From NCBI GenBank assembly GCA_964016885.1, contig OZ024741.1:312356001-312420000 (forward strand): DNA of 64,000 nt, written 5' to 3'. The stretch comes from Eledone cirrhosa (Eukaryota). This document shows, piece by piece, positions 4,763 through 49,108 of the stretch. Numbering within the stretch: position 1 is the first letter of the stretch; each line of letters starts with the position of its first letter. Position numbers and translations under genes: made by a program. Under the pieces are notes generated by a model that ran no database searches, was not told the DNA's origin, and saw only the letters and a program-made list of their open reading frames with translations.

Positions 4763-5152
4763 AGGAGGTGAGTTTTATTGTAGCACAATAAAGCAATGCA
4801 AATATCGGTTAAGTAGCACTCTACAGTTTGTAGGACTGGAGTATAAATAATATAAGATCAAAAGATGGTTAAAAGAGTTCCAAGTATTTTATTATGCGCA
4901 TTTCAAAAACAAATATCATCATGGGATGATATCTGCGTTCTCATCAGATAAAATAGGGAGACATGATATGAAGCTTCAAAAACACTTGTGAATAGTGAAG
5001 TTTTTAATCAACATATGTTGATCTAAAACTTCACTATTCACAAGTGTTTTTGAAGCTTCATATCATGTCTCCCTATTTTATCTGATGAGAACGCAGATAT
5101 CATCCCATGATGATATTTGGAACTCTTTTAACCATCTTTTGATGTTATATTA
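4763..5152. mobile_element. foldback element A in (TA)n, putatively PLE-derived
   Basis: Palindrome centred at 5014/5015 with arms 4848-5014 and 5015-5152; ~85-bp tail on the left only; contains a hammerhead. Confidence 0.75.
4885..4955 (-). ncRNA. type I hammerhead ribozyme with minimal palindromic stem III
   Basis: tattttat-CTGATGA-stem II (atatcatc/gatgatat)-GAAA-tgcgca-TA-ataaaata; 8-bp stem I. Confidence 0.85.
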
Positions 5153-5166
5153 TATATATATATATA

Positions 5167-5638
5167 AGTATAGAACCAGTTTGAAACTAGTTAGACCATT
5201 ACTCTACACAGTACTCGATACTTGACATAGTAGAGTATGAGAATCCAGCCAGATCTACCTATAAACATACATGATTTGAAGAATACTTCGAGTGAGACGC
5301 TTAATCTCAAGTCTGGTTTCCTAAAATCTATAACCAACTCACCATTTAGACTGAGTGCTCGGTTATTTTGGGATATAACCTCCCGTTTTTTACCACCACA
5401 TATGTATATATATGTATATAATGGGAGGTTATATCCCAAAGTAGCAGAGCACTCAGTCTAAATGGTGAGTTGGTTATAGATTTTTGGAAATTAAACTTGA
5501 GATTAAGCCTCTCACCCGAAGCATTATTCAAACCATGTATGTTTATAGGTAGCTCTGGCTGGATTCTCATAATCTACTGTGCCAAGTATCGAGTACTCTG
5601 TAGAGTCATGGTCTAACTAGTTTCAAACTGGTTCTACA

Positions 5639-5640
<2 letters not shown>
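5167..5640. repeat. foldback element B, ~220-bp inverted arms around a short TA tract
   Basis: Arms ~5167-5387 and ~5421-5640 are diverged reverse complements; (TA)n on both flanks. Confidence 0.85.
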
Positions 5641-5675: not shown

Positions 5676-5867
5676 TTAGGTTTGTTGGTTCACCACTGGA
5701 TAGAACTGGTCATTCCGTATGGTCAATCCTGGTGTAATTTTGTGAAGAGTATTCAACGCAGTGCAGTTCACCCATCTTCGTTTGTGTAGTTGGTGGTGCG
5801 AATACGGAGTTAATTATAAATGAAATAACAGGAGGCTGGACTGGTGTAAATCCTTGAAAGGTTTATT

Positions 5868-5925
5868 ATACTATGATCATTTCAATGACCGGGTTCCATA
5901 TGAATCCGCTGATATCATCAGGTAT
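5868..5925 (-). ncRNA. type I hammerhead ribozyme
   Basis: atac-CTGATGA-imperfect stem II-GAAA-tgatca-TA-gtat. Confidence 0.7.
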
Positions 5926-7078
5926 TGAAATATAACAAAGGAATATGTAAAAAGCCATGGGCCCGAAAAATCAAAGACAGAGAGGACTGCTGACCAACTA
6001 GCTTCTCTGCCAGCCGCCCTCAAATGTTGGCAGCTGAAAACTACCAATGAATATCTGGTGAGGGGGCGAAGGCTTATAATGCGCTACCACCACTCTATAT
6101 TGATTCTTATTTACCTTTATTAATTTTTTTACTATCTCATTAATGTATATATTTTTTTTTAAATTATTTTATTAATGTATTTTTATCAATGTATTCTATC
6201 TTTATATTGGTTTTTATCTTTGTATGCTGCTTTCATTATTTTTTCATTTTTTCTTATTTTATCGTATTTTTTTGTAACTTTTCCTTACTCAGGTCATTAT
6301 GCACCTTTCATAGCCCCCTACCCACCTAAGAACCACATTACCTATAACCCGGACTAACTGGGACTTTAAAATAATTTTGGTCTATTTGCACTTTTCATTG
6401 GGTTGTTACCTTCGACTTGTGTGGTGGCTTTTCCCTGCTGCGCGCTGGGCACTCGGAAAATTCAGCCTTCCTTGAGTGCTCGGAAAAATTAATTTCCATT
6501 TCTTTTGCTGGACGATACCACTCGAGACTGGCTGACTCATGGTGGTGGGTGTGCTGGCGGGGCCTTCCTATCGAATTCTTTACTCTATATCCCATACTAA
6601 TATCTTATCGAGTTAAACATTTTTTTCATATAAGACTCTCTCCGTAAGTTCATTAAATAAATAAATCTCGCTACTTCAATTCACCATTTTGCAATTAAAT
6701 ATTTTTAATTTAATTTAATTTCATCCTATAACTCGCAACATAAGTTTAACGTTCCAATCTTCGGTTCACACATTAGACCATACAGACACTCATTATAGAT
6801 TCTTTGGGTAGCATTTTTTTCGCAGCATTTTCTAACATGAATGTAGTTTGACTCTTACACTACACTTCATTCTCCCTTTCTTTCTTTCTTCCCCTCCTTC
6901 TTTTACGGGGTGGTGGTAGCGCATTATAAGCCTTCGCCCCCTCACCAGATATTCATTGGTAGTTTTCAGTTGCCAACACTTTGAGGGCGGTTGGCTGAAA
7001 GGCTAGTTGGTCAGCCGTCCTCTTTGTCTCTGATTTTTCGGACCCATGGCTTTTTACATATTCCTTTGTTATATTCTA

Positions 7079-7136
7079 ATACCTGATAATATCACCCGAT
7101 TCATATGGAATCCGGTCATTGAAATGATCATAGTAT
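7079..7136 (+). ncRNA. hammerhead copy with mutated core (CTGATAA)
   Basis: atac-CTGATAA-...-GAAA-tgatca-TA-gtat; G8A relative to the left-arm copy. Confidence 0.55.
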
Positions 7137-7182
7137 AATAAACCTTTCAAGGATTTAAACCAGTCCAGCCTCCTGTTATTTC

Positions 7183-7272
<90 letters not shown>

Positions 7273-7294: not shown

Positions 7295-7391
<97 letters not shown>

Positions 7392-7660
7392 TATATATAT
7401 ATATATTATGGATGTTGAGACTCTAGTCTTCATTAAGAAATCTCTCTAGAAGAAGGTCACTCTTATATAATAAACCTTGCAAGTTCCTTTGTATCCAATG
7501 ATGTAGACCAGTTCTTCTTTTGCGGAAATGCATTCGAGTTTCAGGGAGTGGGATTGGATGCGTGCAAAGCCTTTCCTCACTTCAAATAGCTGCATGCACA
7601 GACATTGCTCAATAAGTGATATTTTTGCGATGCATGTTGTTGCTGGTCATAGGCAAGTAC

Positions 7661-7721
7661 TCAGTATATTACTGGTACTTTATTTTATCGACCCCGTAAG
7701 GATGAAAGGCAAAGTTGACCT
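7661..7721 (-). mobile_element. SINE fragment
   Basis: ctggtactttattttatcgaccccgtaaggatgaaaggcaaagttgacctc matches the family body. Confidence 0.75.
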
Positions 7722-8051
7722 CTCATCCTTACGGGGATATATTGTATATATATTAATAAAATATCGGTGGCCATTTTCAGTTGATTCAGATTTATTTAAC
7801 TCCGTTATACATATTTCGCTAAGGATTATCTTTTATTAACATATAATGATCCGGCTTGCACCACTTATACAGATTGTTGAACGCTTTTTTTTCTCTGGTT
7901 AACAACCGACAGTCCATAATGTTCGGTTAACACCATACTCTAATTATATATATATATATATATATATACGTTATTCCGAGTTGAATCGGAGGTAACCACA
8001 GTAAGTAAGGTACTCAATACATAGCAGAGTATAATAGTTTTAATATAGAAG

Positions 8052-8102
8052 AGATTCTACAGGACTAGAACTGTTTCATTCATTAGAAATCATCAGGAAT
8101 CT
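8052..8102 (-). ncRNA. type I hammerhead ribozyme (family D)
   Basis: agattc-CTGATGA-tttctaatgaat-GAAA-cag ttctagtc ctg-TA-gaatct. Confidence 0.85.
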
Positions 8103-8554
8103 GGGTATCAAAAAATAAATATGGTATTTATAGGTCTCTACAAGTGGTAGGAGAGGGTGGGGAGTGGGATGGGTGCAGGTCATTGGTTGATAGAGAAGGG
8201 AATTCATTAAAGGCTAATTCTACATAGCTATAGTTAAATTATATTTATTTATGTTTTTAGAGTAACAAAGGCAGACAGAAATCTATAAACAAGTTCCGGA
8301 TGGCATACCATTCCTTGTCAATAAGTTTCTCTTAAGCTAGCAGATGTCTATAAAATCAGTGGGGGGTCATTCATGCTCGATAGAATTAAAGGAAAGGGAG
8401 ATTCTTTAAAAGCTAAAGTCATTAAGTTCTGCTAAGTGACAAAGGTCTAGGGAATTCTGCAGACAGATTCAAAATACTGAGTGCATATCTTACTATTATC
8501 TTCGAACTTCTCTTAAACTAATCAACAATATGCCAAATCAACAGACACATTCAC

Positions 8555-8585
<31 letters not shown>

Positions 8586-8609
8586 ACACCTGAAAAAAAA
8601 AAACCAAAA

Positions 8610-8809
8610 AAACACACATACTCACTCACACACTTACGCGCAACCATAAACACACACATAAACACAAATACACACATAAAAACACACACACATATATAAA
8701 AAAAGTATATAAATATATACAAATATATATTCATGTACACGCACATACATACACATATACATACATACATACATATATAAAATACATATACACATATACA
8801 TACGCACAC

Positions 8810-8905
<96 letters not shown>

Positions 8906-9020
8906 CACACACATACATATACATATATACACATATATATATATATACACACACATACACACACACACACATACATACATATATATATACACATACATAT
9001 ACACACATACATATATATAC

Positions 9021-9061
<41 letters not shown>

Positions 9062-9067
9062 CATACA

Positions 9068-9101
<34 letters not shown>

Positions 9102-9238
9102 CACACACACACGGATACACACACACATACACACACATACACACATACACACATATATATATACACAAGTGAATACACTCACACGCATACATACAAACAC
9201 GAGTATACATATGTATAAATATCTATACACACACACAT

Positions 9239-9294
<56 letters not shown>

Positions 9295-9355
9295 ATATAC
9301 ACACATACACATACATACACACACACATACACATATATACACATACATACACATA

Positions 9356-9396
<41 letters not shown>

Positions 9397-9406
9397 ATAT
9401 ATACAT

Positions 9407-9455
<49 letters not shown>

Positions 9456-9516
9456 TACATACACACACACACATATACATACATATATATATATCTCTCT
9501 AAACACACACATACAA

Positions 9517-9561
<45 letters not shown>

Positions 9562-9717
9562 CATGTATATATATATATATATATACACACACATATATAT
9601 ATATACATACATATATCCATACATACACAAACATACACATGCATACACAGACCTATACATAAATATACACATATATATACAGAGATATAACGCACAAATA
9701 CACACACATATATACAT

Positions 9718-9785
<68 letters not shown>

Positions 9786-9801
9786 GCATACACACACACA
9801 T

Positions 9802-9833
<32 letters not shown>

Positions 9834-9929
9834 TTACACACACACACGCGTGCATACACACATACACACACCCACACACAAAATATATATACACACACAC
9901 ATTCTCTCTCTCATGCACATATATACATA

Positions 9930-10000
<71 letters not shown>

Positions 10001-10252
10001 ATGCATATATACACAGACACATACAAATACATACATACACACACATACACATACACATACATACATACATATATATATATACATATATATACATATATAT
10101 ATATATACACGCATGCATATACATATACACATACATATACATACACATACGTACATACACACACACACATATATGTACATATACACTCACAAATACACAC
10201 ACATATATATACACACATATATACATATACATACATACAAACACATACATAT

Positions 10253-10295
<43 letters not shown>

Positions 10296-10332
10296 CACAC
10301 ATATACACACATACAGACACGCACACGCACAC

Positions 10333-10379
<47 letters not shown>

Positions 10380-10445
10380 TATATATACATATATATATAC
10401 ACATATATATATATACACATAAATATATATATATATATATATCCA

Positions 10446-10483
<38 letters not shown>

Positions 10484-10620
10484 CATATACATACACATAC
10501 ATATACACATACACACATATATACAGACAAATATATACACACACACATATACAAACATACATATACATACACATACATACACACACACATATACATACAC
10601 ATACATATACGTACATATAC

Positions 10621-10677
<57 letters not shown>

Positions 10678-10815
10678 TACATATACATACATACACACAC
10701 ATACATACATACATACAAACATAAATACAGACACATACAAACATATACCTGCATAAATATACACACATAAAACACGTATTCACACAAACATATGTATATA
10801 TACACATATATACAT

Positions 10816-10866
<51 letters not shown>

Positions 10867-11030
10867 TACATACATATATATATATATATATACATACATA
10901 TATATATACACATACACATACATATATATATACACACACAACACATACACATATACACATATACAAACAAATATATACACATACAAGTAAATAGGTACTC
11001 AGTAAATATACGCATATACACAGGCACATA
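8610..11030. repeat. (TA)/(CA)/(TACA) microsatellite mosaic, mirrored at 11469-13580
   Basis: Read directly; unique interruptions recur in reverse-complement order in the other arm. Confidence 0.95.
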
Positions 11031-11163
11031 AAGACACCTCTACAGGCAGAAAAAGTAGATACAAAAGAGGTACTCACATGACCATAGTGGCCGTATTTCA
11101 GGTTGAGGAGGGGTGGGGGTAGGGTGGGGAGGAGGTATAGGGGCCAATAGGGGGAGGTCGTTT

Positions 11164-11469
11164 TTAGCCATCGGGCTTTAACACTGGCTTAAAGTGTTTG
11201 AATGTTGCAAAGTTCTTGTGCATGCAGTTCGGGCAGTGTTCAGAGAGTTTGTTCAGTAGCGGGCCCTTGGCGAATAAAATTTCGTAACTCTCTGAAATAC
11301 AAAGGTCGCAGCCCTTGTGTCCTCCGTCGTAAGAGCGCGCTTTCTGGAGTATTTTCCAATTAAGCGTGAAGGGGGTGGAGTTCCTTTTGAGGTCCCAAAC
11401 GTAGGAGGCGAGTGTTGTTTGGTTTGATTTATCCGGTCTTCTGAAGGAGTGGGTATGGGCATACCAGCG
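11164..11469 (-). pseudogene. C-terminal part of a PLE GIY-YIG endonuclease
   Basis: R..AH..SF......[12 protein letters not shown]....F.LNWKIL.KA......CDLCISE...I.....LLNK.SE....CMH; R/H and CxLC..E..LN..CxH motifs; frame open to the stop. Confidence 0.85.
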
Positions 11470-11539
11470 TATATGTTTGTATGTGTCTGTATTTATGTTT
11501 GTATGTATGTATGTATGTGTGTGTATGTATGTATATGTA

Positions 11540-11596
<57 letters not shown>

Positions 11597-11733
11597 GTAT
11601 ATGTACGTATATGTATGTGTATGTATATGTGTGTGTGTATGTATGTGTATGTATATGTATGTTTGTATATGTGTGTGTGTATATATTTGTCTGTATATAT
11701 GTGTGTATGTGTATATGTATGTGTATGTATATG

Positions 11734-11771
<38 letters not shown>

Positions 11772-11837
11772 TGGATATATATATATATATATATTTATGT
11801 GTATATATATATATGTGTATATATATATGTATATATA

Positions 11838-11878
<41 letters not shown>

Positions 11879-11915
11879 GTGTGCGTGTGCGTGTCTGTAT
11901 GTGTGTATATGTGTG

Positions 11916-11956
<41 letters not shown>

Positions 11957-12206
11957 ATATGTATGTGTTTGTATGTATGTATATGTATATATGTGTGTAT
12001 ATATATGTGTGTGTATTTGTGAGTGTATATGTACATATATGTGTGTGTGTGTATGTACGTATGTGTATGTATATGTATGTGTATATGTATATGCATGCGT
12101 GTATATATATATATGTATATATATGTATATATATATATGTATGTATGTATGTGTATGTGTATGTGTGTGTATGTATGTATTTGTATGTGTCTGTGTATAT
12201 ATGCAT

Positions 12207-12275
<69 letters not shown>

Positions 12276-12371
12276 TATGTATATATGTGCATGAGAGAGA
12301 GAATGTGTGTGTGTATATATATTTTGTGTGTGGGTGTGTGTATGTGTGTATGCACGCGTGTGTGTGTGTAA

Positions 12372-12403
<32 letters not shown>

Positions 12404-12419
12404 ATGTGTGTGTGTATGC

Positions 12420-12471
<52 letters not shown>

Positions 12472-12624
12472 ATGTATATATGTGTGTGTATTTGTGCGTT
12501 ATATCTCTGTATATATATGTGTATATTTATGTATAGGTCTGTGTATGCATGTGTATGTTTGTGTATGTATGGATATATGTATGTATATATATATATGTGT
12601 GTGTATATATATATATATATATAC

Positions 12625-12670
<46 letters not shown>

Positions 12671-12731
12671 TTGTATGTGTGTGTTTAGAGAGATATATAT
12701 ATATGTATGTATATGTGTGTGTGTGTATGTA

Positions 12732-12780
<49 letters not shown>

Positions 12781-12790
12781 ATGTATATAT

Positions 12791-12831
<41 letters not shown>

Positions 12832-12892
12832 TATGTGTATGTATGTGTATATATGTGTATGTGTGTGTGTATGTATGTGTATGTGTGTATAT

Positions 12893-12954
<62 letters not shown>

Positions 12955-13089
12955 ATGTGTGTGTATAGATATTTATACATATGTATACTCGTGTTTGTAT
13001 GTATGCGTGTGAGTGTATTCACTTGTGTATATATATATGTGTGTATGTGTGTATGTATGTGTATGTGTGTGTGTATCCGTGTGTGTGTG

Positions 13090-13123
<34 letters not shown>

Positions 13124-13129
13124 TGTATG

Positions 13130-13178
<49 letters not shown>

Positions 13179-13293
13179 GTATATATATGTATGTGTGTAT
13201 ATGTATGTGTATATATATATGTATGTATGTGTGTGTGTGTGTATGTGTGTGTATATATATATATATGTGTATATATGTATATGTATGTGTGTG

Positions 13294-13383
<90 letters not shown>

Positions 13384-14011
13384 GTGTGCGTATGTATATG
13401 TGTATATGTATTTTATATATGTATGTATGTATGTATATGTGTATGTATGTGCGTGTACATGAATATATATTTGTATATATTTATATACTTTTTTTATATA
13501 TGTGTGTGTGTTTTTATGTGTGTATTTGTGTTTATGTGTGTGTTTATGGTTGCGCGTAAGTGTGTGAGTGAGTATGTGTGTTTTTTTTTTTTTTTTTTTT
13601 TTTAGGTGTGGTTTTTTTTTTTTTTTCTTTTTTTTTTTTTTTTGTGAATGTGTCTGTTGATTTGGCATATTGTTGATTAGTTTAAGAGAAGTTCGAAGAT
13701 AATAGTAAGATATGCACTCAGTATTTTGAATCTGTCTGCAGAATTCCCTAGACCTTTGTCACTTAGCAGAACTTAATGACTTTAGCTTTTAAAGAATCTC
13801 CCTTTCCTTTAATTCTATCGAGCATGAATGACCCCCCACTGATTTTATAGACATCTGCTAGCTTAAGAGAAACTTATTGACAAGGAATGGTATGCCATCC
13901 GGAACTTGTTTATAGATTTCTGTCTGCCTTTGTTACTCTAAAAACATAAATAAATATAATTTAACTATAGCTATGTAGAATTAGCCTTTAATGAATTCCC
14001 TTCTCTATCAA

Positions 14012-14073
14012 CCAATGACCTGCACCCATCCCACTCCCCACCCTCTCCTACCACTTGTAGAGACCTATAAATA
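14012..14073 (+). promoter_or_regulatory. possible pLTR promoter (CCAAT and TATAAATA) upstream of the hammerhead
   Basis: CCAAT at 14012 and TATAAATA at 14066-14073; also present in the mirrored arm and in the 59.5-kb copy; motif match only. Confidence 0.3.
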
Positions 14074-14095
14074 CCATATTTATTTTTTGATACCC

Positions 14096-14146
14096 AGATT
14101 CCTGATGATTTCTAATGAATGAAACAGTTCTAGTCCTGTAGAATCT
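14096..14146 (+). ncRNA. type I hammerhead ribozyme (family D)
   Basis: Identical to 8052-8102; predicted cleavage after 14140 (GUA). Confidence 0.85.
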
Positions 14147-14209
14147 CTTCTATATTAAAACTATATATATATATATATATATATTCTTACATTTAACGAC
14201 AATAATTCA

Positions 14210-14381: not shown

Positions 14382-15027
14382 CAACACCACCAAGATAGCT
14401 TGGTGAGGAGGGTGATATTTGGACCCCCTGCGGGATGAAATACAAAGCCAGAGAAACTGCGGAGGAACTCAGCAGAGTCAACGGCCATCCAAATAGTACT
14501 TTTTTTTCACCTAGGAGTGAAAGGGCACCCTGTTGTTTTTTGCAACACCTTTCTAAGAGAGGAAAACTCTGAAAAAATAACTGCGGCTTCTGAAGCATCC
14601 GATGATGTTGACCAGTTCTCCTTTTCGGGCAGTGATTTCAATTCTCAGAGAGTGGGATTGGTCGAGTGACAGCCTTTTCTTAAAGCATTCAAAGTACAGA
14701 AATTGCTTGTTCAGGATCTGTTACAAGCGATTGCAATATTCTTAACAGAGTTTGCAACCGTCATACACACATACACACACACACACAGACACACGCGCAC
14801 ACAGACATAAACACGGACACACACACATATACATACACACACACTCTCACACACACATATATATATATATATACATATATCAAGTAAGAATATTTTCGAA
14901 ACAGCGAGTGGATTTGAAATTATTAGAAATGTTAGCTATCGCCGTATTTTGACTAAAGAAATTAAAGAAATTATTTAGCCTGATAGTGGGTTTAAGAACC
15001 CTCGGAGAAATGGAAAAAGATGAGTAT

Positions 15028-15099
15028 AGACGTACATGGGAGTCGAACCCACATCTTTGGTTATCCGGACCACTGTGCTTCCATTTACACCAACACATC
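15028..15099 (-). tRNA. tRNA-like cloverleaf (pseudo-tRNA) inside family F
   Basis: 72-nt reverse complement of 15297-15368 with A and B boxes. Confidence 0.55.
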
Positions 15100-15296
15100 A
15101 CCAGTCATTTTCCATTCAAATTAGAAGCTATAAACTTAGCGACTCTAATGTTAAGTAAGAATATTTTCGAAACAGCGAGTGGATTTGAAATTATTAGAAA
15201 TGTTAGCTATCGCCGTATTTTGACTAAAGAAATTAAAGAAATTATTTAGTCTGATAGTGGGGTTATAGCTTCTAATTTGAATGGAAAATGACGGAT

Positions 15297-15368
15297 GATG
15301 TGTTGGTGTAAATGGTAGCACAGTGGTCCGGATAACCAAAGATGTGGGTTCGACGCCCATGTACGTCA
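15297..15368 (+). tRNA. tRNA-like cloverleaf (pseudo-tRNA) inside family F
   Basis: Acceptor gatgtgt/gtacgtc (G-U rich), D arm gtgt/gcac, anticodon arm tggt-ccggata-acca, T arm gtggg-ttcgacg-cccat; C33 is atypical. Confidence 0.55.
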
Positions 15369-15482
15369 ATACTCATCATTTTCAATTTCTCCGAGGGTTC
15401 TTAACCCCACTATCAGGCTAAATAATTTCTTTAATTTCTTTAGTCAAAATACGGCGATAGCTAACATTTCTAATAATATATA

Positions 15483-15519
<37 letters not shown>

Positions 15520-15632
15520 GGTTAAAAAACGGTTCAGTACTATACGAACACACCAGACAACAATATGACGGTAAAGTAGACAACATAGAAATTAAAATAA
15601 TATCTAAATATATGTATATATATTTATATCAA

Positions 15633-16471: not shown

Positions 16472-17384
16472 TAAATACACACATCGCACAGCGTCATCCC
16501 AGTGGCGTGAATAGGATTATCGACAGCTATAAATAGCCACCGAGTCCATTCAACTGAGTTAGCTCTACAATTAAGGGCCGTATATATATCCAAAATTAAA
16601 TTAAGTGTGTCATTCATGTCTGCTATTTCTAGCTGTCGATAATCTATTATATATATATATATATATATATAATTGGAAATCAGTAAAATCGAATATCTGG
16701 CGGTTTGCAAGTAAATTCGGCCTACTTATATGAAGTGATGGGTTAGCAAAGCACTCGATAAGATAGGTCTCAGAGTTATAACATACGTTTAAATAGCTTG
16801 ACAAATCGAACATTGTGGTAGGCTAAACTAACATACAATACATACCAAAGTAACGAAAAAACTAATCAGGTTGAGAAAAATAGACCTGGACAAATCAAAC
16901 GGGCGTTTGAAATGTTTCTCAGACACCGAAATCAAATATCAGACTTACTTGAATGGCAAGGTCATGGTATTTGTGACTGAACAGAGGACTCAGTTTATCA
17001 ACAGGTTTTCGTTCTGCTTAGAATCAGGAGTGATAACATATGTTGCTGCTCTTATGGCTGCTAATCAAATCTATATTTATCACGTGTTAATTCCGGCAAG
17101 GGAAATAACCCCTGGTTTTTGGCGGGTCATTCAAATACTAGCGAATGGAAATATTTTAATTTCCGCTAATCATCATGATAAGCTCTCGACTAGATGTTAT
17201 AAAACTAACACAAATAATTAACCAATCAACAGAATTTTCCAATTAAATTAATTGGTTAATTATTAAATCTAGGAGATTAATATAATTGGAAATCAGTAAA
17301 ATCGAATCTCTGGCGGTTTGCAAGTAAATTCGGCCTACTTATATGAAGTGATGGGTTAGCAAAGCACTCGATAAGATAGGTCTC

Positions 17385-17448
<64 letters not shown>

Positions 17449-25965: not shown

Positions 25966-28900
25966 GTTTACCGTACTGTAAGCAAAATATCACATCGGGT
26001 GGAGGGAGCCACGGAGGCTCAAATCGAAAAAGGCTTCGGATGCGTCTGCGCCCGCAAAACCTACATCACCCGAGGAAAAAAAATATGCCACAGTAGACGT
26101 ATTTTTGCCACCCCCCAGGAGGCGAAGTCTCACACTTTGGTAACCCTAAAGAGTGAGGAGAGAGTCTGGCCGCGTCTGTCCTTGCTGGAATCGAGAACAG
26201 GACGACCATGCTGCAAGCACAGCAAATAGTGAGACAGAACTGGTCAGGTATAAGCATGCAAATGCTAATACAAACTGACCAGGAGTGTATCGAGGCTATC
26301 CCCGATATCATAGACCTCGAGGAAGGTCTCCTACTCCCTATAAGCTTGGAAGGAAGGCGCCCAAAATGCTGTCACTGTAGAGCAAAGGGTTACCTCAGGG
26401 CCTTTTGCCCGCAGAAGACAGCGATAAAGAAGCCCCTCCCCCTCCTTCCAATTCCTAGTCCACTGATACCAAGAGCAGGGCAGGCAACAAAGGCAAAAGA
26501 ACCTGCAACGATGAGTAGGAGGACAGCGTCCGTGGCACCCATACCAAGGCCACGGACTACTAAAGCATATGCAGCAGAGGCGGCAACACCAATAGCTACA
26601 TTTGCAGTAGCTGCACCAGCAACAACATCGACGGAAAGGGCTCCACTACCACCACCAACAGCCGTGGAGCATATACACCACCCAGATCCCATGGAATTCG
26701 ACATGGATTCTGAGACGGGAGTGAAGTGGCAAACGGTTTGCAAAGAACAAAAAAAAAACGAAAAAGAAAGAACTCCTTAGCTTAAACCTCCAAAAGCGAT
26801 GGAAAACAAATAGGGGTAAAGGTTACAAGGGGACGCGCAGCAACGCCACCACCATCACCACCAACAACCACCATCACCACCAACAACCACCACACCACCA
26901 CCACCAGCATCACCGCAAACACAACAGAACAAACATACACAACAGCAGCAACAAGAAAACAGCAACAAATCACCCCCCCCCCCCCCCCACAAAAAAAACA
27001 ACATTACACAGCCAGAAACATGGCAAATAAAGAACTCTTAGAACATATAGAGCAGCACACAGACATTACAGACAAAAATTACTACACCACACCAACACAA
27101 AGAACTTTCCCGAAAAATATAAACATTATTTGTTTCTACTTTAGGCACAAGGCCAGCAATTACCCAGTTCATTACTGGTACTTTATTTTATCGACCCCGT
27201 AAGGATGAAAGGCAAAGTCAACCTCGGCGGGATTTGAACTCAGACCGTAAAGGGACGTAACTATGTTGGAAAGCATGGCGTCCGACCCTCTACCGATACT
27301 GCCAATCCACCGAAAAATATAAACATTATTGAAATTAAAATAGAACATTATAAACATTTAAAAGAAAAATTCCCCAACACAGTTGGAGACCTCAGAGTGT
27401 CGGTTACAAAGGGATATACACCGACATCATCTTGGAGACACCCATGACCAGCTAAAGGGATGGTTCGATTGTCCCTTTCCCAAACGATCAGGGTAGGTAA
27501 CCCCTTTTCACTTATTCCATTCGTCACCCAACATGGCCTTACTTAGTAAAAGCAGTATAAATGTACGTGGCCTGAGGTCATCGTGGAAGCAGGGCCACCT
27601 GCTTAACGATCTTCGGCGGCTACGACGTATACGCATCTCCCAGCCGTCCGGGAGCGGGGTTAGGGGTAGATGGAGTTGCTGTGATTTTTGAGAGAAGGTA
27701 CGTCTGTGGTACTGGACGTGACAAGCAGTGAAGGCAATACTTTCAGGCTAATAGCCGTCTACTCCCCAACAGGGGCAGGACGGCCAGATTTTTTCAGACG
27801 TCTAGAGATAGCTCTTTAGTGTTAGTGAGTGACTGGAACGGTATCTTAGATGCACGCTGGGATTATGTGGGGCTAGTAAATAAGGGAGGAGGATGTAAAA
27901 GCCTCACCAAACTGCTCAGACATTTTCAACATGTCTGACAGGTATCGACTAGATTATCCGAATGTGCTAATATGGACATGGGAAAACCGCATCGGGTCAT
28001 CCAGATCGTATCTAGATAGGATATTATGGAGAGAAACAGATAAGGCTAGCGTAGGTTGTCCACAATTGAAAATAGTCGACTACACGAAACACACATTTGG
28101 GATCTGTGAAGTTCAGTTAGATAGACTTAATAGGAAAGGACCTGGAAGCTGGACGCTCTTTCCCGTCACGCAAAGCTTACGGAGACTGGATATTCGAATT
28201 AGCTGACGGGTGCGATCGTCAACAATAAGTGGTGGTTTACCCTGAAAAGGGTAAATGGAGTAAAATCGCTAAGGTTTAGCAAAGAACTAGTGATAGAGGA
28301 AAATAATGTAGAAGGAGAGCTAGTTAGAAAGCTAGAAGAGGCGTTTAGGACAGGCATCCTAACCGACGTGCTTGCAGCGAGATTGGCACTCGATCAATTA
28401 TTCAACGCAATCACGAAGGCTGCGTTGTCAGAGCTAGAGCGCGTGCTCTGAAAGACAAGGGGACAAAAGCAGTCCAATGGCCCAGGGTGGTGGAGGTGCG
28501 ACGTGGCAACAAAGCCACAATTCAATCCTTGCCTGACCCAAACTGGCACGTTACACGAACCCGAGCAGATGTGTGAGGCTTTTTAGCAGCACGTAGCTCA
28601 ATTATTGGAGACGGCGGTGGGTCAGAACGGAGTATGATCTTCAGTGCCGACCTCGAGGGACTACAGCAGCTCTCGACGACCGCAGTGCAGTATTGCGAAA
28701 ACCCGATAACAGCAGGCGAAATACAGGAAGCGATGTCTGACGGCCCGAGGGGTAAATCGCCAGGTTTGGATGGTCTGCTCTACGAGCTTTATGCGTACAT
28801 GCCAGATTTGTTCAGCGACCTCTTGGCAGACATCTACTGCAACTGGCAGCAGAACGGGCATTCCCAGTTGTGTTAGCCGGGAAGCTGTGGCGCTGTTGAA

Positions 28901-30920
28901 AAAATACGCGAACAAAGGGGACGTTATAGACATATTCAAGCCCATAACTCTGTTAATCACAGATTTCAATGTTCTTGGCCAATGTGTTCGCAAAGAGATT
29001 CGCGCTTGTCGTCGGTAATCTGGTAGGAGAGTTGCAGACATGCGCCATTCCAGACAAATCCATCCACGACAACCTCCACCTCATGCGATATATCATAGAG
29101 AAGGTGTTTAAGGAACCTTCCACAGGTGGAGCCCTGATCAACTTAGATCAATCTAAGGTGGCGGTCGCCGAGGCGGCTTGTTTCGGACCCATTTTCAGGG
29201 GTTGGATCCTCACGATGCACAGCGATATCTGCTCAGTTGTGAGGGTGAACTGTCATCTGTCACAGCCACTCAGCATCATGCGCTCGGGAGTCTAGGATTA
29301 TCCCCTCTCGTCGCTCTTGTACGTATTGGCCCCAGAATCGTTACTGCACAAATTGGAGGCGATGAGAGACGTCCCACGCGAACTGGGATGTGGGATGTGC
29401 GTATCGGCTTACGCCAACGACGTTATCGTGGTAGTGTCAAGATCCGGACATGTCCAGATGCTCGGTACCGCTCTCAAGGAATATGAATCAGTTACAGGAA
29501 CAAAGTTAAACCAGGAAGAGTCGGTGAGCTTACAGCTGGGCGCTGGACGGAAGGACCGGTTAAATTGCTCGGGGTCTGGTTCGGTCCGGACCTCCAGATG
29601 GAGAAAAGCTGGAGGGAGATGACGTATAGGGTGGCCTCTTTCACCCAAAAATGGGCCGAGAGCAAGCTGTCCCTGAAAGGTCGGGCAGAGTTGGTGAATG
29701 CGTTCATCGCATCCGTCATCTGCTACCACCTAAACGTTGTACCTTGCCCCGGACTAACTCTGACAAAAATGGAGCGTCTCCTCTTCCTTGACGGTGAACA
29801 GGTGTGGTCACCGTTTGCCAAACGTGTTTTTCCCCAGCTCGTCTAATTAACGGAGCTGCAGTCCTGGATCAGGAAAAGTAGGAGGGATAGTGCTTGGAAG
29901 CTGGAATGTTTCCAAACGTTCACAGCCTTCTACCAGCTGGGCAATAGTATCGGTGGAACATCCTCCTCGGCGTTCTATAGAGGAGTAGTGGAGGGGAAGA
30001 GTGACGACGATCTGGGGGACACCCTGGGCGTCGAAGACGATCAGCTGTTCGCTCTCTTCACGATTACTTTCAGCCCGGGGCCTATGGACAACTTCCAGAA
30101 CTCCCTGGCCTGGCAGCGCTACCGGGAGCATTGCCGGTTCGAGATAAGCACTACAGGCACGAAAGTGCCGTCAGCCGAAGCTGTCCGAGATGCGCACAGA
30201 GCGATGAAAGCGTTGAGCACACGCTTGTTCAGTGTCCGAGCATTGCTGACTTGTGGAGCAATGTCGAATTATTGCTGTCACGTGTAGGACGGATCCGGGT
30301 ATCGACTGACGCCATTGTGCAGATAGCCCCGTGGTCTTCCTTTAAGGAGGAGGAAGGGCAGGCAGTTTTCATCTGCCTGGTGGCCATGGCGAAAGAGATT
30401 GTATGGTGGACAAGATTGAAAGGATTGAATACGGACACTCTCCTCTTCGGCGTATCCCTGATTAACATTTTCAAATTTCACTTGAAGAGGAAAATCAGGG
30501 TGGAGAGGCAAGTGATACCTTCTAGTAAGTTTTTAGAAAGGTGGGTGAATGTAGCGAGAATGGTCCGAGTGAACGGGTCCGCTCTGAATATATGCTTGTA
30601 GTTTGAGGAATGGGAAAAAATTGAGAGAGGGCGCTTGCCCTGGGGGTCAGAATGGCCGTGGTCTTTGGTGTGGTTTTCGCCCCGAGTAACCCTCAGACGT
30701 TTCACCTTATTTGGGAATTTTTCATTGTTTGAATTTTCATTTTTATTGTTTATATATATATATGTTTCTATGTCTTTTTCTTTTCTTATATAAATAATAA
30801 AAATCTTTACACGATCAAAACCCACATCGTACCGTCCTGTACTGTCCTGTGCCGTCTGTAATGTTTTTCTTGATGTCAGCCCTTGTGGCCAATAAAAACA
30901 TCATCATTATTATTATTATT
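25966..30920 (+). mobile_element. Tx1-type LINE copy A, degenerate near-full-length
   Basis: ORF1 knuckle CCHC....YLRAFCP; ORF2 APE, RT (KSPGLDGL, AYAND) and CPRC...HTLVQC; AATAAA and (ATT)n tail. Confidence 0.85.
27131..27309 (-). mobile_element. SINE inserted in Tx1 ORF1 with ~20-bp TSD
   Basis: cgaaaaatataaacattatt at 27111-27130 and 27311-27330. Confidence 0.9.
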
Positions 30921-33873
30921 TTCCGGCACGTAAGGCTTACAGGGACCGAGTCAACAAGTTAGTTAAGCAAAAGTTGACAGGGGGGGATCATCAACAACAG
31001 ATGGTGGGGGGCTCTCAAAAGAGAGATTTGAGTAACTTCGATAGAGTTCAGCAAAGAACTAGCGTTAGAGAAAAATAGAAAGGAGCGGGAGCTGGTAGAT
31101 AAGTTAGACGAGGCTATTTGTAGTGGCGTCGCAACTGACGTGCTAGCGGCGAGAATGGCATTAGACCATTTCTTCAATGCCAAACACGAAGGTTGCATTG
31201 TCAGAGCTAAGGCGCGTGCGCTGAGAAACAAGGGAACTAAAGCTGTTCGATGGGCCCGCGTGGCGGAGGCGCAGTGTGGTAATAAAACCACAATTCGGTC
31301 TTTGGCGGACCGAGACGGACACGAGATAAGCGATTCCAAGCGGATGTGTGAGACTTTTCGCCAGCACTTTGCTCGGTTGTTCAGGGAGAGTGGCGAGTCA
31401 TAGAGAGTAGCGGATTACAGTCCCTACCTTGACGGCTTGCCGCGCATCTCGACGGTCGACGCTGAGCGCTGCGAAAGGCCGATTACTTCAGCCGAAATTC
31501 AGGACGCATTTGTCGGCTGCATGAGGCGCAAGTCACCCAGTTTGGATGGCCTGCCCTACGAGCTTTACGTAAATATGCCAGACTTGTTCTCCGAACTCCT
31601 CGAAGCACTCTACTGTAACTGGAAGCAGAATGGGAGTATTCCCAGTTCTGTGAGCAGGGGAGTGGTGACGCTGATAAGGAAAGGCGAGAACAAGAGGGAT
31701 ACATTAGACAACTTCAGGCCCATAACTCTGCTCAACACAGAGTTTTAAGATTTTGGCCAAGGTGTTAGCAAAGGGATTGGCGCTTGTCGTCGAGGATTTG
31801 GTTGGGGAGGCGCAAACTTGCGCAATCCCAGCCAGGTCCATACACGACAATCTCCACCTCATGCGATACATCATAGAGAGGGTAGGGTGTAAACCAGGCT
31901 TCGGTGGGGCACTGATCAATTTAGATCAATCGAAAGCATTCGATAGGGTCGACCATCTGTATCTGGAGTTTGTCCTCAAAGCAGCTGGCTTCGGCCCTGT
32001 CTTTAGAAGCTGGATCGTTGCAATGCACAGCGGCACGCGCTCGGTGGTCAAGGTTAATGGCCACCTCTCGGAACCATTTCGGCTCTCCCGATCGGTCCGT
32101 CAAGGGTGCCCTCTCTCTTCCCTTCTGTACGTATTGACTCTCGAGCCTTTACTGCGGAAGCTGGAGCTGTTGCAGGGCATCCCGCTAGAACCGGGACGTG
32201 GAAAGGCGGTGTCGGCTTATGCGGACGACATCACCGTGATGGTGTCGAACACCTCAGAAATCGAGGTGGTCGGCACCTTATTGAAGGAATATGAAAGGTT
32301 GACAGGAGCCAAACTTAACCCGGAAAAGTCGGTGGGCTTGCAGCTCGGAACCTGGAGAGGCAAGCCCATGCCGTCCAACAGCGTCGTGGGGCGCTGGACG
32401 GACGGACCAGTAAAGTTGCTCGGGGTTTGGTTCGGACCAGACCTCCAGGTGGAAAAGAATTGGGACGAGGTAACGAGTAGAGTAGCCAGTCTAACCAAAA
32501 AAATGGGCTGGGAGGAAGCTATCACTAAAAGGTCGCGCGGAGGTGGCGAATGCGTACATCGCGTCCGTCATCTACTACCGCCTAACCGTCGTGCCTTGCC
32601 CCCGCCCGCGCCTCGTAAAGTTGGAACGGCTCCTCTTCAAATTCTTGTGGAGGGGACAAGTTCCATTGGTGAGGCGGTCCATCTGCTGCCAGCACCCTTT
32701 ACGCGGAGGGCTGGGCATGCCGTGGCTAATGATGCGCAGACATGCGTTGAGGCTGCGACATCTCCAGATATTCTGCCTCAATGGTGAACAGGTGTGGTCG
32801 CCGTTTATCAGACGGGCCTTTCTTCAGCTCATTTCTTTGACTGAGCTGCAGTCCTGGGTCAAGAAGAGACCGAGACTGGGTGACTGGCACCTGGAATGTT
32901 GCCAGGCACTCACTGCCCTCTACCAAGCGGGCAATGCAATCAGTGGAACTTCCACTCTCGAGTTCTATAGAGGATTAGTGGTGGGCAAGTGCGATGATGC
33001 ACTCGGAGAAGCTTTGGGCCTCGACGAAGTCGAACTGACCAGTCTGTACCCGAGGACTTTTGAGCCGGGGACGATGGACAATTTCCAGAAATCCCTCACT
33101 TGGCAGTGCTACCGGGGGGCACTGCCGGTTCGGGATAAATCTACAGGCACGGAAGTGCTGTCAGACGGACCTGCCCAAGATGCGCACAGAACGACGAAAC
33201 CGTTCTGCACGCATTTTTCCAATGTCCGTGCATTACTGACTTGTGGAGTTATGTCGAACAGCTACTGTCGCGTGTGGAACGAATCCGGCTATCGGCCGAG
33301 TCCATAGTGAAGATCGAGCCGCCACCTTCCTTAGGTCAGGAAGAGCAGGACATTTTCCTCTGTCTGGTGGCAGTTGCGAAAGATTATATGGTGGACCAGG
33401 TTGAAAGGACTAATGACAGACACTTTTCTCTTCGGCCAATTCCTCATCAACTTCTTCAAGTTTCACCTGGAAAGGAGGGCGAGGGTGGAGAGAGAAGTGC
33501 TGCCCCCCAGTACATTTGCTAAAAGGTGGGTGAATGTGGCGAGAATGGCTCGTGTGAATGGGCCTACTCTGACCATGCGCCTATAGGCTGGCTAACATGA
33601 GGAGAGGGGTGCTCCCGTGGGTGCCCTAGAAGCGCAGGGTTGTTCAGGATTGGTGGGGTACCCGAATCACCCCAGGGTCGTTCACCCCCTATCGGGGAAT
33701 TTATTTTGTTATATTAATGCATAGTTTATTTTATATTTTTATATTTTCATTGTTAAATTAGACTTGCCATTGTGCACTTTTAATCGACCTTATTGTAAAC
33801 CCCCACTGTCCCTGTCTTTGTATTGTCCCCTACATGTCGGCCCTTGTCGCTAATAAATGAAATCATTATTATT
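30921..33873 (+). mobile_element. Tx1-type LINE copy B, 5'-truncated
   Basis: FRPITLLN, LDQSKAFDRVDH, VRQGCPLS, AYADD, GGLG; stops and frameshifts; AATAAA end. Confidence 0.9.
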
Positions 33874-33961
33874 ACTTTGCCTTTCATCCTTACGGGGTCG
33901 ATAAAATAAAGTACCAGTAATGCACTGGGTAATTGCTGGCCTTGTGCCTAAAGTAGAAACA

Positions 33962-33965
<4 letters not shown>
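33874..33965 (+). mobile_element. 5'-truncated SINE followed by (ATT)n
   Basis: Family 3' half; (ATT)n at 33962-34003. Confidence 0.85.
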
Positions 33966-34003
<38 letters not shown>

Positions 34004-37000
34004 GGCGACCTACGTAGTAAATCGTATCATCGTGAGCTGCGCAAAGTTTGTTATTTCCGTTTGTTAAAAATTGCCATTTATGGACATTTTTTATTGTTAA
34101 CTATATATAAGCGCACATACATTGTTTTCCGAAAAGGACACGCAAAAAGATTGGGGCCTTGTGCCCAAAATTTAAACTTTTATGATTATCAAAAAATTTC
34201 TTTCAAAAAAAAATGGCTAATTCACCACTGCACCAAGCAGCTGAAAGCCTTTCTCACAAATTAACACCTCACACCGACACCACCATTGTAAATGATTATA
34301 CGTCTGCCAACACAAACAATTTAAGCACTAGCAATATTTTAAATTTGTCTCAGGTAGACATTCATTTCCCGCCATTACCAATGACTGCAGGGGTTAAAGC
34401 CGCCCCCACCACCACCACCACCGCGACAACCACCAACGCGACAACAGAAACAAAAGGAAAAAATAAATCAACTCGTGATGTCGAAATATTTTCAACCAAA
34501 ATGGACTCTCCCAAACCGAACTTCACTGACGTCACCACCACCACAACTGAAAATAAAATTAATAATAACAAAAATAACGATAGCAACAACAACAACAATG
34601 ACATAAAAAAACCACCCTGAGTTTTGCCAGAGTAGCAAAACAGTGAGAAGCATTTACGGTAACCCAGGAGGAATTAGAAAATGCCAAACAAATGGTAAAG
34701 AAAGATGGGTACAGGGTCAGCCTCACCCCCACCTAATAAAATGGAGCATCGGCGCCTATGCACCGTGTCGTATCGAACAATAAATGTAAAATCGCCCCGA
34801 GTGGAACGGGCATCCGAGTCCCAAATCCAAAAAGCTTTGGGACATGTGTGGGCAAGAAAAAACCACATCAGACGTGGGAAGAAGTATGGAACCGTGGACG
34901 TGTTCTTTGAAACACCAGAGGAGGCTAGAGAACACTCCATGGCCCCATTAAGAAGTGACGACTTCACACTCGTCCCAAGTTATTGTGGCCAGAGTCTCGT
35001 AAAGATCAGGGTGACCCACGTTCCACCGGCCATCGAAATTCCCTGGCTAATAGCGGCCGTCCTCGCCGGCATCGAAGCCAACACAAAGATAATAGCAATA
35101 GCAAAAGAAAAGCAGGAGAACTGGTCCGGATCTGGGATGGAGCTCCTGATCCAAGCGGACCAAAAAAGCATTGAGGAGATCCCAGAGGTAATAGACCTCA
35201 CTGACGGCAGCCACATCACCGTAATTGTCGAGGGCAGAAGGCCTAGGTGTGTCGTTTGTGGTGAAGGAACCCACCTAAGGGCTTTCTGCCCTAAGGCTAA
35301 AAGGTTGAGGCCACCTCTCCTACCCACCCCAGTGACACAACCATCAACACCACCAGTAGCAGAGATGGCAGCAACAACTGTAGCAGCAACAACAGAAGCA
35401 ACTATAACAGTAACAACGCCAGAAACAGTAGCAAACCCAACAACACCACCACCAGCAAAAACAACACCACCACCACCAAACGCTTCAGAACTAGCACCAG
35501 CGCCTACAGCATCGTCCACGCCACAACCAAAACTAACGCCCGTGGAGGATTTTCCACTCCCCGGCCTATCACAACTGGAGACAGATTGTGACGACGAGGA
35601 GTTGGAAACGGTATCAGGAAAAGAAAAAGAAACCAAAAAAGAAAAAATTCTCTTCCTTCCCCCTCCAAAAACAAAATACAGAGGGGAACAAATAAATTAA
35701 CAAACAAAAAAGTTAGGACAGATATGCCACCATCCACACCAGCATCACCAACCCCATCAACCCAAACACCAACACCATCACCATCATTAACCCCAACACC
35801 ATCATCACCTACACCACAAAAGTCACGAAAATGCGAAACAGAAACAAACCCACAACAAACGCAAACAAAACAAAACAACCAAAACGATACACACTACACA
35901 GCATTAAGTTTGAACAACAAGCAATCATTACACTACATCCAACACAACACCAGCATCACAGAAAAAGACTACACAACAACCCAAAAATTCACACCACCTC
36001 CACACATACAAATCACTCGCATCACACAGAAAACGTACATGACACTAAAACAAAAATTCCCCAAAGACATCGGAGACTTCCGACAAGCACTCTCCAGGAG
36101 ATCCTTCCTAAGGAGGCCACAAGCAGTGAAAGGGATGGAAAAACCGTCCTTCCCCTAAGAAAAGTAAGGTAAGTGGTCTTTCCCATCTTTTCCACTCCTT
36201 TTCAGCATGACCTCACTCAGAATAGGCAGCATAAATGCGCGTGGCTTGGGGTCGTCATGGAAGCAGGGCCACTTGCTCAACGATCTCAGGTCACTAAACA
36301 TAGATGCAGTGGCCATCAGCGAGACCAGAGTCTCCGATACACGGGCCTTCGCACCGATCTTCGGCGGCTACGATGTGTACGCATCTCCCAGCCGTCCGGG
36401 ATCGGGGGGAGGAGTTGCTGTGCTTTTACGGAGAGGTTTGGATCTTGCCATACGGGCCATGTTCCTGGACCCAGAAGGTAAGTTGGTGGTGCTGGACGTG
36501 ACCAGCGGAGACGGGCAAGCTTTCAGGTTAGTGGACGTCTATGCCCCGACAGGAGCAGGGCGGCCTGATTTCTTCCGGCGTCTGGAGACCTTTCTTGGAA
36601 CGTCCCGCTCTTTAGTGTTAGTGGGCGACTGGAACGGGATCTTAGATGCACGCTGGGATTGTGTGGGATTAGTGGTTAGGGAAGGAGGGTTCGAAGGTCT
36701 CACCAACCTGCTCAGGCATTTTGAACTGTCTGACAGGTACCGAATGGATTTCTCGAATGTACCGATGTGGACTTGGACAAATCGCATAGGGTCATCCAGA
36801 TCATATCTAGATAGAGTATTTTGTAGGGAAATAGATAGGTCTAGCATAGCCTGTCCCACAATTCAAGATAGTCAGCTACACGGACCACAAATTCGTGATC
36901 TGTGTGCTTGACTTAGATAGGCTTCATAGACGAGGACCCGGCTACTGGAAGCTAAACGCGTCCTTACCAGCGCGCAAGGTCTACAGAGACCGGATTAGCG

Positions 37001-39883: not shown

Positions 39884-39923
<40 letters not shown>
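34004..39923 (+). mobile_element. Tx1-type LINE copy C, full-length with a few disablements
   Basis: ORF1 ~34213-36158 (CX2CX4HX4C knuckle CVVCGEGTHLRAFC); ORF2 36207-~39623 with APE (SINARGL, SET, GDWN, YLDR), RT and zinc finger; (ATT)n on both sides. Confidence 0.92.
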
Positions 39924-39925
<2 letters not shown>

Positions 39926-40003
39926 CTTGAATCTCAGTCATTGATGTTGGTTAACTGGAAAGTCCGTTGGAATGAATATCAAGCTACTACCTGCAGCCTC
40001 AGA

Positions 40004-40308: not shown

Positions 40309-40309
<1 letters not shown>

Positions 40310-48897: not shown

Positions 48898-49108
48898 AAG
48901 TAAGAATATTTTCGAACCAGCGAGTGGGTTTGAAATTATTAGAAATGTAAGCTATCGCCGTATTTCGACTAAAGAAATAAAAGAAATTATTTAGCCTGAT
49001 AGTGGGGTTAAGAACATCTTTTTCCATTTCTCCGAGGGTTCTTAACCCCACTATCAGGCTAAATAATTTCTTTAATTTCTTTAGTCAAAATACGGCGATA
49101 GCTTACAT
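48898..49108. mobile_element. short family F foldback copy
   Basis: Same start aagtaagaatattttcga as 14882; the inverted arm lacks the first ~50 bp. Confidence 0.8.

Follow-up and report, generated by a model that had tools for sequence, protein, structure and literature searches.

An abundant tRNA-gene-bearing, ribozyme-free repeat with Penelope-type insertion geometry, likely a parasite of Penelope enzymes rather than an ordinary SINE

The 64,000-nucleotide stretch of DNA analysed in this work (the window) contains a short repeat that carries a tRNA-like module, has no hammerhead ribozyme, and is inserted in the manner of Penelope-like elements (PLEs). This abundant, PLE-type, ribozyme-free, tRNA-gene-bearing repeat is real, and it is likely to be a parasite of Penelope enzymes rather than an ordinary SINE. 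Its dependence on PLE machinery is highly probable, and we give about even chances to the more specific proposal that it is a non-autonomous derivative of PLEs which has no ribozyme and is copied from multimeric RNA left unprocessed, the tRNA likely serving as a leaky internal promoter. The two insertions of the family in the window are composed as follows.

14882..15152, minus strand (the sense strand of the unit): full unit of 271 nt, made of a 53-nt leader, a 72-nt tRNA-like module and a 146-nt 3' part, with its outer terminus at 14882 (self-BLAST, alignment)
14882..14918, minus strand: terminal tail of 37 nt, present in one arm only
15153..15265, minus strand: partial tandem, pseudo-LTR-like, the 3' 113 nt of the preceding unit
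15263..15477, plus strand: inverted 5'-truncated arm without the 37-nt tail, carrying a second tRNA-like module at 15297-15368
14860..14881: (TA)n target on the left side, with (TA)n again at 15478-15516
48898..49108, no strand assigned: second insertion, with a forward arm at 48898-49015, an inverted arm at 49015-49108, and a 14-nt A/T direct repeat at its ends (possible target duplication)

Self-BLAST and alignment recovered the three components of the first insertion that the initial annotation had read from the letters, namely the 271-bp unit, the partial tandem, and the inverted arm lacking the terminal ~37 bp. The partial tandem (15153-15265) matches 14882-14994 over 113 nt with 98.2% identity, and the inverted arm corresponds to the unit from 15133 to 14919 at 207 of 215 letters, with exactly 37 nt absent; the two arms are joined head-to-head with an overlap of 3 nt. 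The proposed location in (TA)n was confirmed on both sides (14860-14881 and 15478-15516), and for the second copy, which had been reported to share the same terminus at 48898, alignment placed the start of the forward arm at the identical base. The inverted arm of this copy lacks 47 nt, its arms overlap by 1 nt, and both are truncated 3' of the tRNA, neither reaching it. The head-to-head layout is found in 2 of 2 window insertions of the family. Of their four ends, three are at (TA)4+ runs and one is in a pure A/T run; positions no more than 10 nt from a (TA)4+ run make up 8.1% of the window. The direct repeats at the insertion ends consist of A/T only. Another short insertion of the inverted/partial-tandem type (49112-49270) adjoins the second copy.

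PLE insertions have been described as combining partial tandems with a 5'-truncated copy in inverted orientation and a tail of 30-40 bp on one side (PMC8557442, PMC3846280; the tail also in PMC11167929). The family shows a partial tandem, an inverted 5'-truncated copy joined at the 5' end, a one-sided tail of 37 or 47 nt, insertion into simple repeats of the (TA)n type, and frequent 5' truncation. Among the closest known systems are the non-autonomous Chlamys such as MRC1 (PMC8557442) and the pLTR-framed captured DNA of Adineta vaga (PMC3846280); such non-autonomous PLEs are likewise non-coding, form partial tandems or head-to-tail multimers, and occupy microsatellite targets. According to the same portions of PMC8557442, Naiad and Chlamys are also without hammerheads, and Naiads prefer (TA)n. 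Unlike the known non-autonomous PLEs so described, the 271-nt element has a whole pre-tRNA-like gene aboard, and its tail is unmatched to a partner within the 64-kb window: it matches no other window family (BLAST to E=5), no LINE remnant in the window, and, when compared with nine window termini in both orientations, reached a best p of 0.017 among 18 tests.

The largest insertion in the window (7969-14164) served as a positive control, being head-to-head with a 65-nt offset, flanked by TA, and equipped with a hammerhead core. At its centre lies the end of an ORF (11469-11167, minus strand) whose nearest Atlas clusters are named GIY-YIG (score 0.97); Pfam named neither of the two PLE-like ORF fragments, and Atlas gave GIY-YIG for one and a weak RT lead for the other. 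The layout of this insertion together with its GIY-YIG-like ORF suggests that PLE machinery made such geometry in this genome. Its inverted arms of ~2.7 kb are mostly TA/CA low-complexity sequence, and a short copy of its terminus is found at 59387-59864. Three further families (4842-5150, 5815-6093 / 6910-7189, and 59955-60455) have, close to the terminus, a CTGANGA..GAAA core with AATAAA after it, and two of the three are head-to-head. In these four families the cores lie near the termini (4947, 5921, 8096, and 60058) and point to the outer end in 4 of 4 cases, as the tRNA does in the 271-bp unit, in agreement with the polarity first proposed.

No such core is found in the tRNA-bearing family itself. 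The CTGANGA core is absent from both of its copies (0 of 31 window matches), and Rfam gave no ribozyme in 14840-15520 at E<=5, which bears out the earlier remark that no hammerhead is visible. A near-hammerhead string on the opposite strand (14980-15009) was rejected, being without the G8-A9 order, as were Rfam matches to MIR7533, which come from the inverted arms and are far under the gathering score. The sense strand of the unit also contains no AATAAA, unlike the hammerhead families at 4842, 7050-7187, and 59955, and the unit has no A-rich or simple-repeat tail of its own.

The tRNA-like portion of the unit has the following parts.

15028..15099, minus strand: tRNA-like module, with box A at about 15092-15081, box B at 15049-15039, GGA at the anticodon position, and a 4-nt variable loop
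15014..15018, minus strand: T5 run 9 nt past the discriminator base, a predicted Pol III terminator
15129..15132, minus strand: TATA at -33 to -30 from tRNA +1, possibly an upstream promoter element, a weak candidate as a 4-mer in AT-rich DNA
15100..15117, minus strand: leader segment complementary to the trailer 15025-15008, with 15 of 18 pairs in the window copy

Both ARAGORN and Rfam RF00005 reported two tRNA-like modules, at 15099-15028 (minus strand) and 15297-15368 (plus strand), the latter scoring them at 37.6 and 37.1 bits, above its gathering score of 29, and the boxes are legible in the sequence, so the 72-nt cloverleaf with A and B boxes inside the unit stands. On its 5' side the tRNA is preceded by the 53-nt leader and then by the previous unit, and on its 3' side a 9-nt trailer leads to the only run of at least four Ts on the unit sense strand, from which 132 nt remain to the terminus. 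Equivalent runs are found in the inverted arm (T4 at 15379-15382) and in the second copy (T5 at 49019-49023). It has been reported, in the part of PMC9705548 available to this work, that metazoan tRNA gene trailers average ~8 nt before four Ts. Because the 9-nt trailer and the T4-5 run match this average, the module looks like a captured pre-tRNA gene and not like a SINE head. The sole T run would also mean that a normally terminated Pol III RNA carries no 3' tail, so that read-through would be needed.

The complementarity between leader and trailer is, like the T run and the 53-nt leader, a feature absent from the initial annotation. When pairs were counted in the left arm, 56 of 3000 shuffles were as good as the 15/18 pairing with G-U pairs allowed and 8 of 3000 with Watson-Crick pairs only; in duplex energy the window copies did not stand out significantly, being equalled by 180 and 763 of 2000 shuffles. 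At the three mismatched sites most reads have the pairing letter (in X1, one of the public read runs introduced below, 96% at 15103, 72% at 15104, and 98% at 15107, by eye), and positions 15108 and 15109 vary from A to G opposite U (read table, by eye), these variants being in phase in the loose-end consensus of a divergent subfamily. Judged from these letters, the family majority would form 18 contiguous pairs spanning the T run. In the predicted helix tRNA position -1 is paired. Folding gave no significant structure for the tail, the trailer, the leader, or the lone tRNA, and no significant stem-loop at the predicted reverse-transcription start sites (z -0.3 and -1.1); a direct similarity between leader and tail was dismissed as chance (569/1000).

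Public reads showed that the family is not confined to the window. Four of eight listed runs were compared at 82% likeness, of which X1 and X6 are different samples of one organism (A), X1 perhaps being the source sample of the window, and X4 and X5 come from organisms B and C. With 2,821 contig records in X1, 2,905 reads in X6, 10 records in X4, and 4 in X5, the family occurs under three species labels, and it is a high-copy, dispersed family. Pieces from all three labels keep the tRNA, and X4 and X5 include pieces that end at 14919 and 14921. Exact-pattern scans of metagenome and viral contigs gave no match, as expected for animal DNA. The joint 15150>14880, which gives the head-to-tail period of 271 nt, is present in 46 X6 reads from 9 starts, where its bin has a mean depth of 54.5, and in 8 X1 contigs, where it accounts for a depth of 141.5 out of the 1,278 of the last bin, and X5 has one contig with a tandem junction and a different spacer. 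The low share of the tandem joint in X1 counts against the proposed model; contig breaks at branches may be its cause. At the tail end, neither self-BLAST nor the public reads made the unit part of a longer element: records that align beyond 14882 read TA repeat (at 14874, 32,740 of 32,882), and these TA-continuing records amount to 30-60% of the tail depth.

The depth profile of X1, in which summed depth is no copy number, is ~97k over the tail, 287k over 14946-14995, 493k at 15006-15025, and 15-20k (about 17k) and level over 15096-15135, that is, across tRNA +1 and the leader. Depth is lost ~30-fold through the tRNA, with ~94% of arm depth falling short of +1, and there is no clear step in X1 at +1 itself; since the depth is level across +1, no pile-up of starts at the tRNA is visible. 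The lower depth of the tail fits arms without the tail. Part of the fall 5' of 15085 is dropout of the divergent subfamily, which leaves the alignment at 15085 (24 contigs, 266 reads). This subfamily (15085-15106), which is common in X6 and to which the copies in organisms B and C belong, has a different leader and a D-loop one base shorter; by eye, its leader is still complementary to the trailer via G-U pairs. The depth in X1 is also ~200k higher at 14996-15025 than at 14946-14995, an excess that probably stems from subfamilies whose 3' parts differ (there are loose ends at 14974 and 15014). In X6, the read ends at 14918/14921, 14960/14963, 14969, and 15122 are AATT sites and were rejected as artefacts of a restriction library, and therefore the X6 depth profile was left out of the truncation analysis. 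The outcomes named beforehand as contrary to a PLE origin, a pile-up of copies at the tRNA start or a longer element, were not observed, the latter at the tail end. At one X6 locus, covered by 189 reads with an agreement of 1.0, the sequence departs from the unit at 15106, which is 7 nt upstream of +1; this locus behaves as a start-limited monomer would, and so counts against the model as an exception to the absence of starts at +1.

Opposite-strand joints made up nine of the 15 joints shown (three more were not shown). Five of the nine lie at 15025-15041 and reduce to two fold-back axes at short palindromes, and four begin between 15126 and 15151, inside the leader and 27-52 nt upstream of +1. 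The window copy also begins there (15133), and its own inversion junction is not among the 15. A stop at a modified base was considered for the joints at 15025-15041, all of which are 3' of A58 (15043), and is not claimed, being indistinguishable from microhomology.

It has been reported, in the sections of PMC11167929 drawn on here, that a PLE protein in vitro nicks and extends both strands of AT-rich DNA, that reverse transcription starts at two internal sites whose spacing equals the tail, and that hammerhead cleavage is dispensable, unprocessed RNA being the main substrate. With this behaviour, every feature observed in the family can be explained without RNA processing. Copies that cross +1 and the unit junction require a multimeric or circular template, and we propose the following sequence of events. 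The units stand head-to-tail with a 271-nt period. At somewhat less than even, or at best even, chances, Pol III would initiate in the tRNA module of a unit lying upstream, the majority of transcripts would end at the T4-5 run, and a read-through fraction would yield multimers; in SM-alpha, an upstream unit is described as driving Pol III transcription of downstream units (review PMC6765202, in part). Very probably, given the in vitro work (PMC11167929), the PLE protein would then nick both strands of (TA)n DNA, and reverse transcription would start from two internal RNA sites, at 14882 and near 14919-14929, giving one tailed and one tailless arm. Most cDNAs end at or within the tRNA region, presumably stopped by its fold, and the two cDNAs would be joined head-to-head via the microhomology of 1-4 nt that is seen as overlap. 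Most copies, having no whole tRNA, would be dead on arrival, and tandem copies would act as sources. The role of leaky Pol III promoter was chosen for the module because it has been kept despite impeding copying. However, a T5 run normally terminates efficiently, and two read-throughs are needed for the long arm at 14882-15265, which counts against the Pol III step; multimers made by Pol II and carrying the tRNA as a passenger fit equally well. Of the initial proposal of a Pol III-driven SINE copied by PLE machinery, the non-autonomous, dispersed, high-copy character and the PLE geometry are retained, and the designation as a Pol III-driven SINE is weakened by the T4-5 run.

The same observations bear on two other PLE-dependent explanations. 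In one, which we consider unlikely, the tRNA fold would be a processing signal at which RNase P (or Z) releases 271-nt monomers that are circularised and copied round the circle. A hammerhead is missing and the cloverleaf is complete, the unit size fits the ~170-400 nt given for retrozyme circles (PMC7229834, in part), and in the MALAT1/mascRNA system an extended leader-trailer stem is stated to promote RNase P cleavage from a long transcript (PMC8457004, in part). The suggestion that tRNA processing replaces ribozyme cleavage has nevertheless found no support so far, as X1 has no clear step at +1 and four of the nine inversion joints begin in the leader. A linear monomer cannot serve as template for a copy extending across +1, and these four joints thus exclude linear RNase P monomers as their templates; a circular monomer is possible as template and would likewise leave no step at +1. 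The ends left by RNase P (5'-phosphate and 3'-OH) are unsuited to RtcB, which counts against such a circle. RtcB is named as the ligase used for retrozyme circles (PMC7229834), and continuous pairing at -1, as in the predicted helix, is described as hampering RNase P (PMC8457004, PMC9705548), in the parts of these papers used here.

In the other, also improbable, the element would again be PLE-mobilised, with the tRNA gene as captured cargo: Pol II, from a pseudo-LTR promoter or by host read-through, would make the multimers, and the helix would only keep the RNA uncut. The native gene anatomy with its own terminator agrees with this, and Pol II ignores T runs, which would explain multi-unit templates; the anticodon loop varies among reads at 15066 and 15067; and PLE terminal repeats have been reported to mobilise captured host DNA in trans (PMC3846280, as excerpted). 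However, the tRNA impedes copying, as seen from the 30-fold loss of depth, and is still kept under all three species labels, although a pure passenger should be deleted. Box B is intact in both window modules, and the sense strand lacks the AATAAA of the window hammerhead families.

A DNA transposon that has acquired a tRNA, be it a non-autonomous Helitron or a foldback element or MITE bearing long terminal inverted repeats, would account for the long inverted arms and the TA targets, and is very unlikely. The fixed symmetric ends of a MITE or foldback element are not seen, as the inverted-repeat ends are unequal by 37 and 47 nt and the centre is different in every copy; the variable inversion joints largely refute this explanation. 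The head-to-tail junction and the 5' truncation gradient also speak against it, and neither a significant terminal hairpin nor the 5'-TC or CTRR-3' ends that we associate with Helitrons were found.

That the repeat is a conventional LINE-dependent tRNA SINE, whose inverted layout arose by twin priming or later rearrangement, is extremely unlikely. By the SINEBase measures of size and boxes the unit could pass for one, being non-coding, shorter than 700 bp, and provided with internal Pol III promoter boxes A and B, and the high copy number and the possible 14-nt target duplication at the second copy would agree. An ordinary SINE family of ~190 nt in the window, which presumably resembles an octopus SINE, a cephalopod being the probable host, was used as the negative control.

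Control SINE copies: 2315, 4095, 21231, 27127, 33874, 40402, 43994, 62617

Full-length control copies have the tRNA-like head at the 5' end, most copies have no T4 run directly after it, and complex direct repeats of 10-21 nt were found at 5 of 8 copies tested, the other three having one low-complexity 10-mer, one 7-mer, and none. In the 271-nt family, the 5' terminus is occupied by the 53-nt leader preceded by an upstream unit, a T4-5 run follows the tRNA, there is no A-rich or simple-repeat tail, and, unlike the control copies, both window insertions are head-to-head. Monomeric insertion with a LINE-type target duplication was not found either, given the head-to-head arms, a tail unmatched in the window LINE remnants, and direct repeats of A/T only. 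SINEs are defined as LINE-dependent (PMC3531059, in part), and with an internal tRNA and no LINE signature the label SINE is wrong for the 271-nt element. A fragment of the control SINE (7653-7722) is fused to the end of the repeat 7379-7660, with a short inversion after it.

That the modules are functional tRNA genes in tandem, or that the layout is an assembly artefact, can be practically dismissed, although the Rfam score above threshold and the pre-tRNA anatomy might speak for it: the GGA anticodon with a 4-nt variable loop and T37 (Rfam alignment) is not that of a eukaryotic tRNA-Ser, a class II tRNA in which a long variable arm, a purine at 37, and a standard anticodon would be expected, ~94% of arm depth falls short of +1, the arms differ at 8 of 215 sites, and the junction types recur in independent runs.

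Several known systems resemble the 271-nt element in part, as far as the consulted portions of the sources describe them. Animal non-LTR retrozymes (PMC7229834; bioRxiv 10.64898/2026.07.22.740005) share the short, non-coding tandem unit, their proposed dependence on PLEs, and the occurrence of monomers and multimers; in contrast, the 271-nt unit has no type I hammerhead, their defining feature. The Schistosoma SM-alpha/Sj-alpha repeats (PMC6765202, PMC8490949) likewise have a tandem unit of ~300 nt and an apparent internal Pol III promoter, with an upstream unit driving a downstream one, but SM-alpha has a hammerhead, whereas the present element has none and has instead a full cloverleaf, its own T run, and the leader-trailer helix. 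Like tRNA-derived SINEs (PMC3531059), it is short, non-autonomous, and abundant with boxes A and B, and it differs from them in having the tRNA internal, a terminator-like run after it, and an insertion signature of PLE and not LINE type. In the MALAT1 mascRNA module (PMC8457004) a tRNA-like fold within a longer RNA also has its acceptor stem extended by a purine-rich leader and a U-rich trailer; that module is not mobile and is described as needing a bulged base 5' of the cut, while the fold predicted here is without a bulge, and no homology is claimed.

No description of a tRNA-bearing or SINE-type PLE parasite was found among the titles and abstract openings searched, and this family may be filed under another label in the supplementary repeat libraries of PMC8557442 and PMC13282606. 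Short PLE parasites have so far been recognised by their hammerheads, and through a family that bears a tRNA and PLE insertion marks but no hammerhead, parasitism of the Pol III type would reach a third class of retrotransposons. Automatic pipelines would file such an element as an unclassified SINE, as a MITE, or as thousands of pseudo-tRNAs, and this may partly explain inflated counts of tRNAs and unclassified SINEs in mollusc genomes (PMC6962438, PMC9679248, PMC13282606, in the parts used; the connection is ours). With a substrate of only 271 nt, RNA recognition by a PLE protein also becomes open to direct testing in the in vitro assay of PMC11167929. We further advance, tentatively and as possible rather than probable, that a captured pre-tRNA gene might take over what hammerhead and pseudo-LTR do in retrozymes, serving as promoter, with the 18-bp helix deciding between termination, cutting by host tRNA enzymes into a 271-nt circle, and a multimer. 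The family might in that case stand for a class of PLE parasites that is widespread but so far undescribed, has arisen more than once among animals, and corresponds on the PLE side to the partnership of LINEs and SINEs.

Four short inverted or partial-tandem insertions beside TA or A/T runs (5167-5640, 60512-60822, 16671-17387, and the above-mentioned 49112-49270) have neither a hammerhead-type core near their termini nor a tRNA, and it is possible that they are other ribozyme-free PLE parasites. The window also contains, at 27607-41614, a cluster of related LINE remnants ending in (ATT)n, several of them nested or tandem, in which Pfam identified a reverse transcriptase (RVT_1, E 1.4e-26 at 37669-38361).
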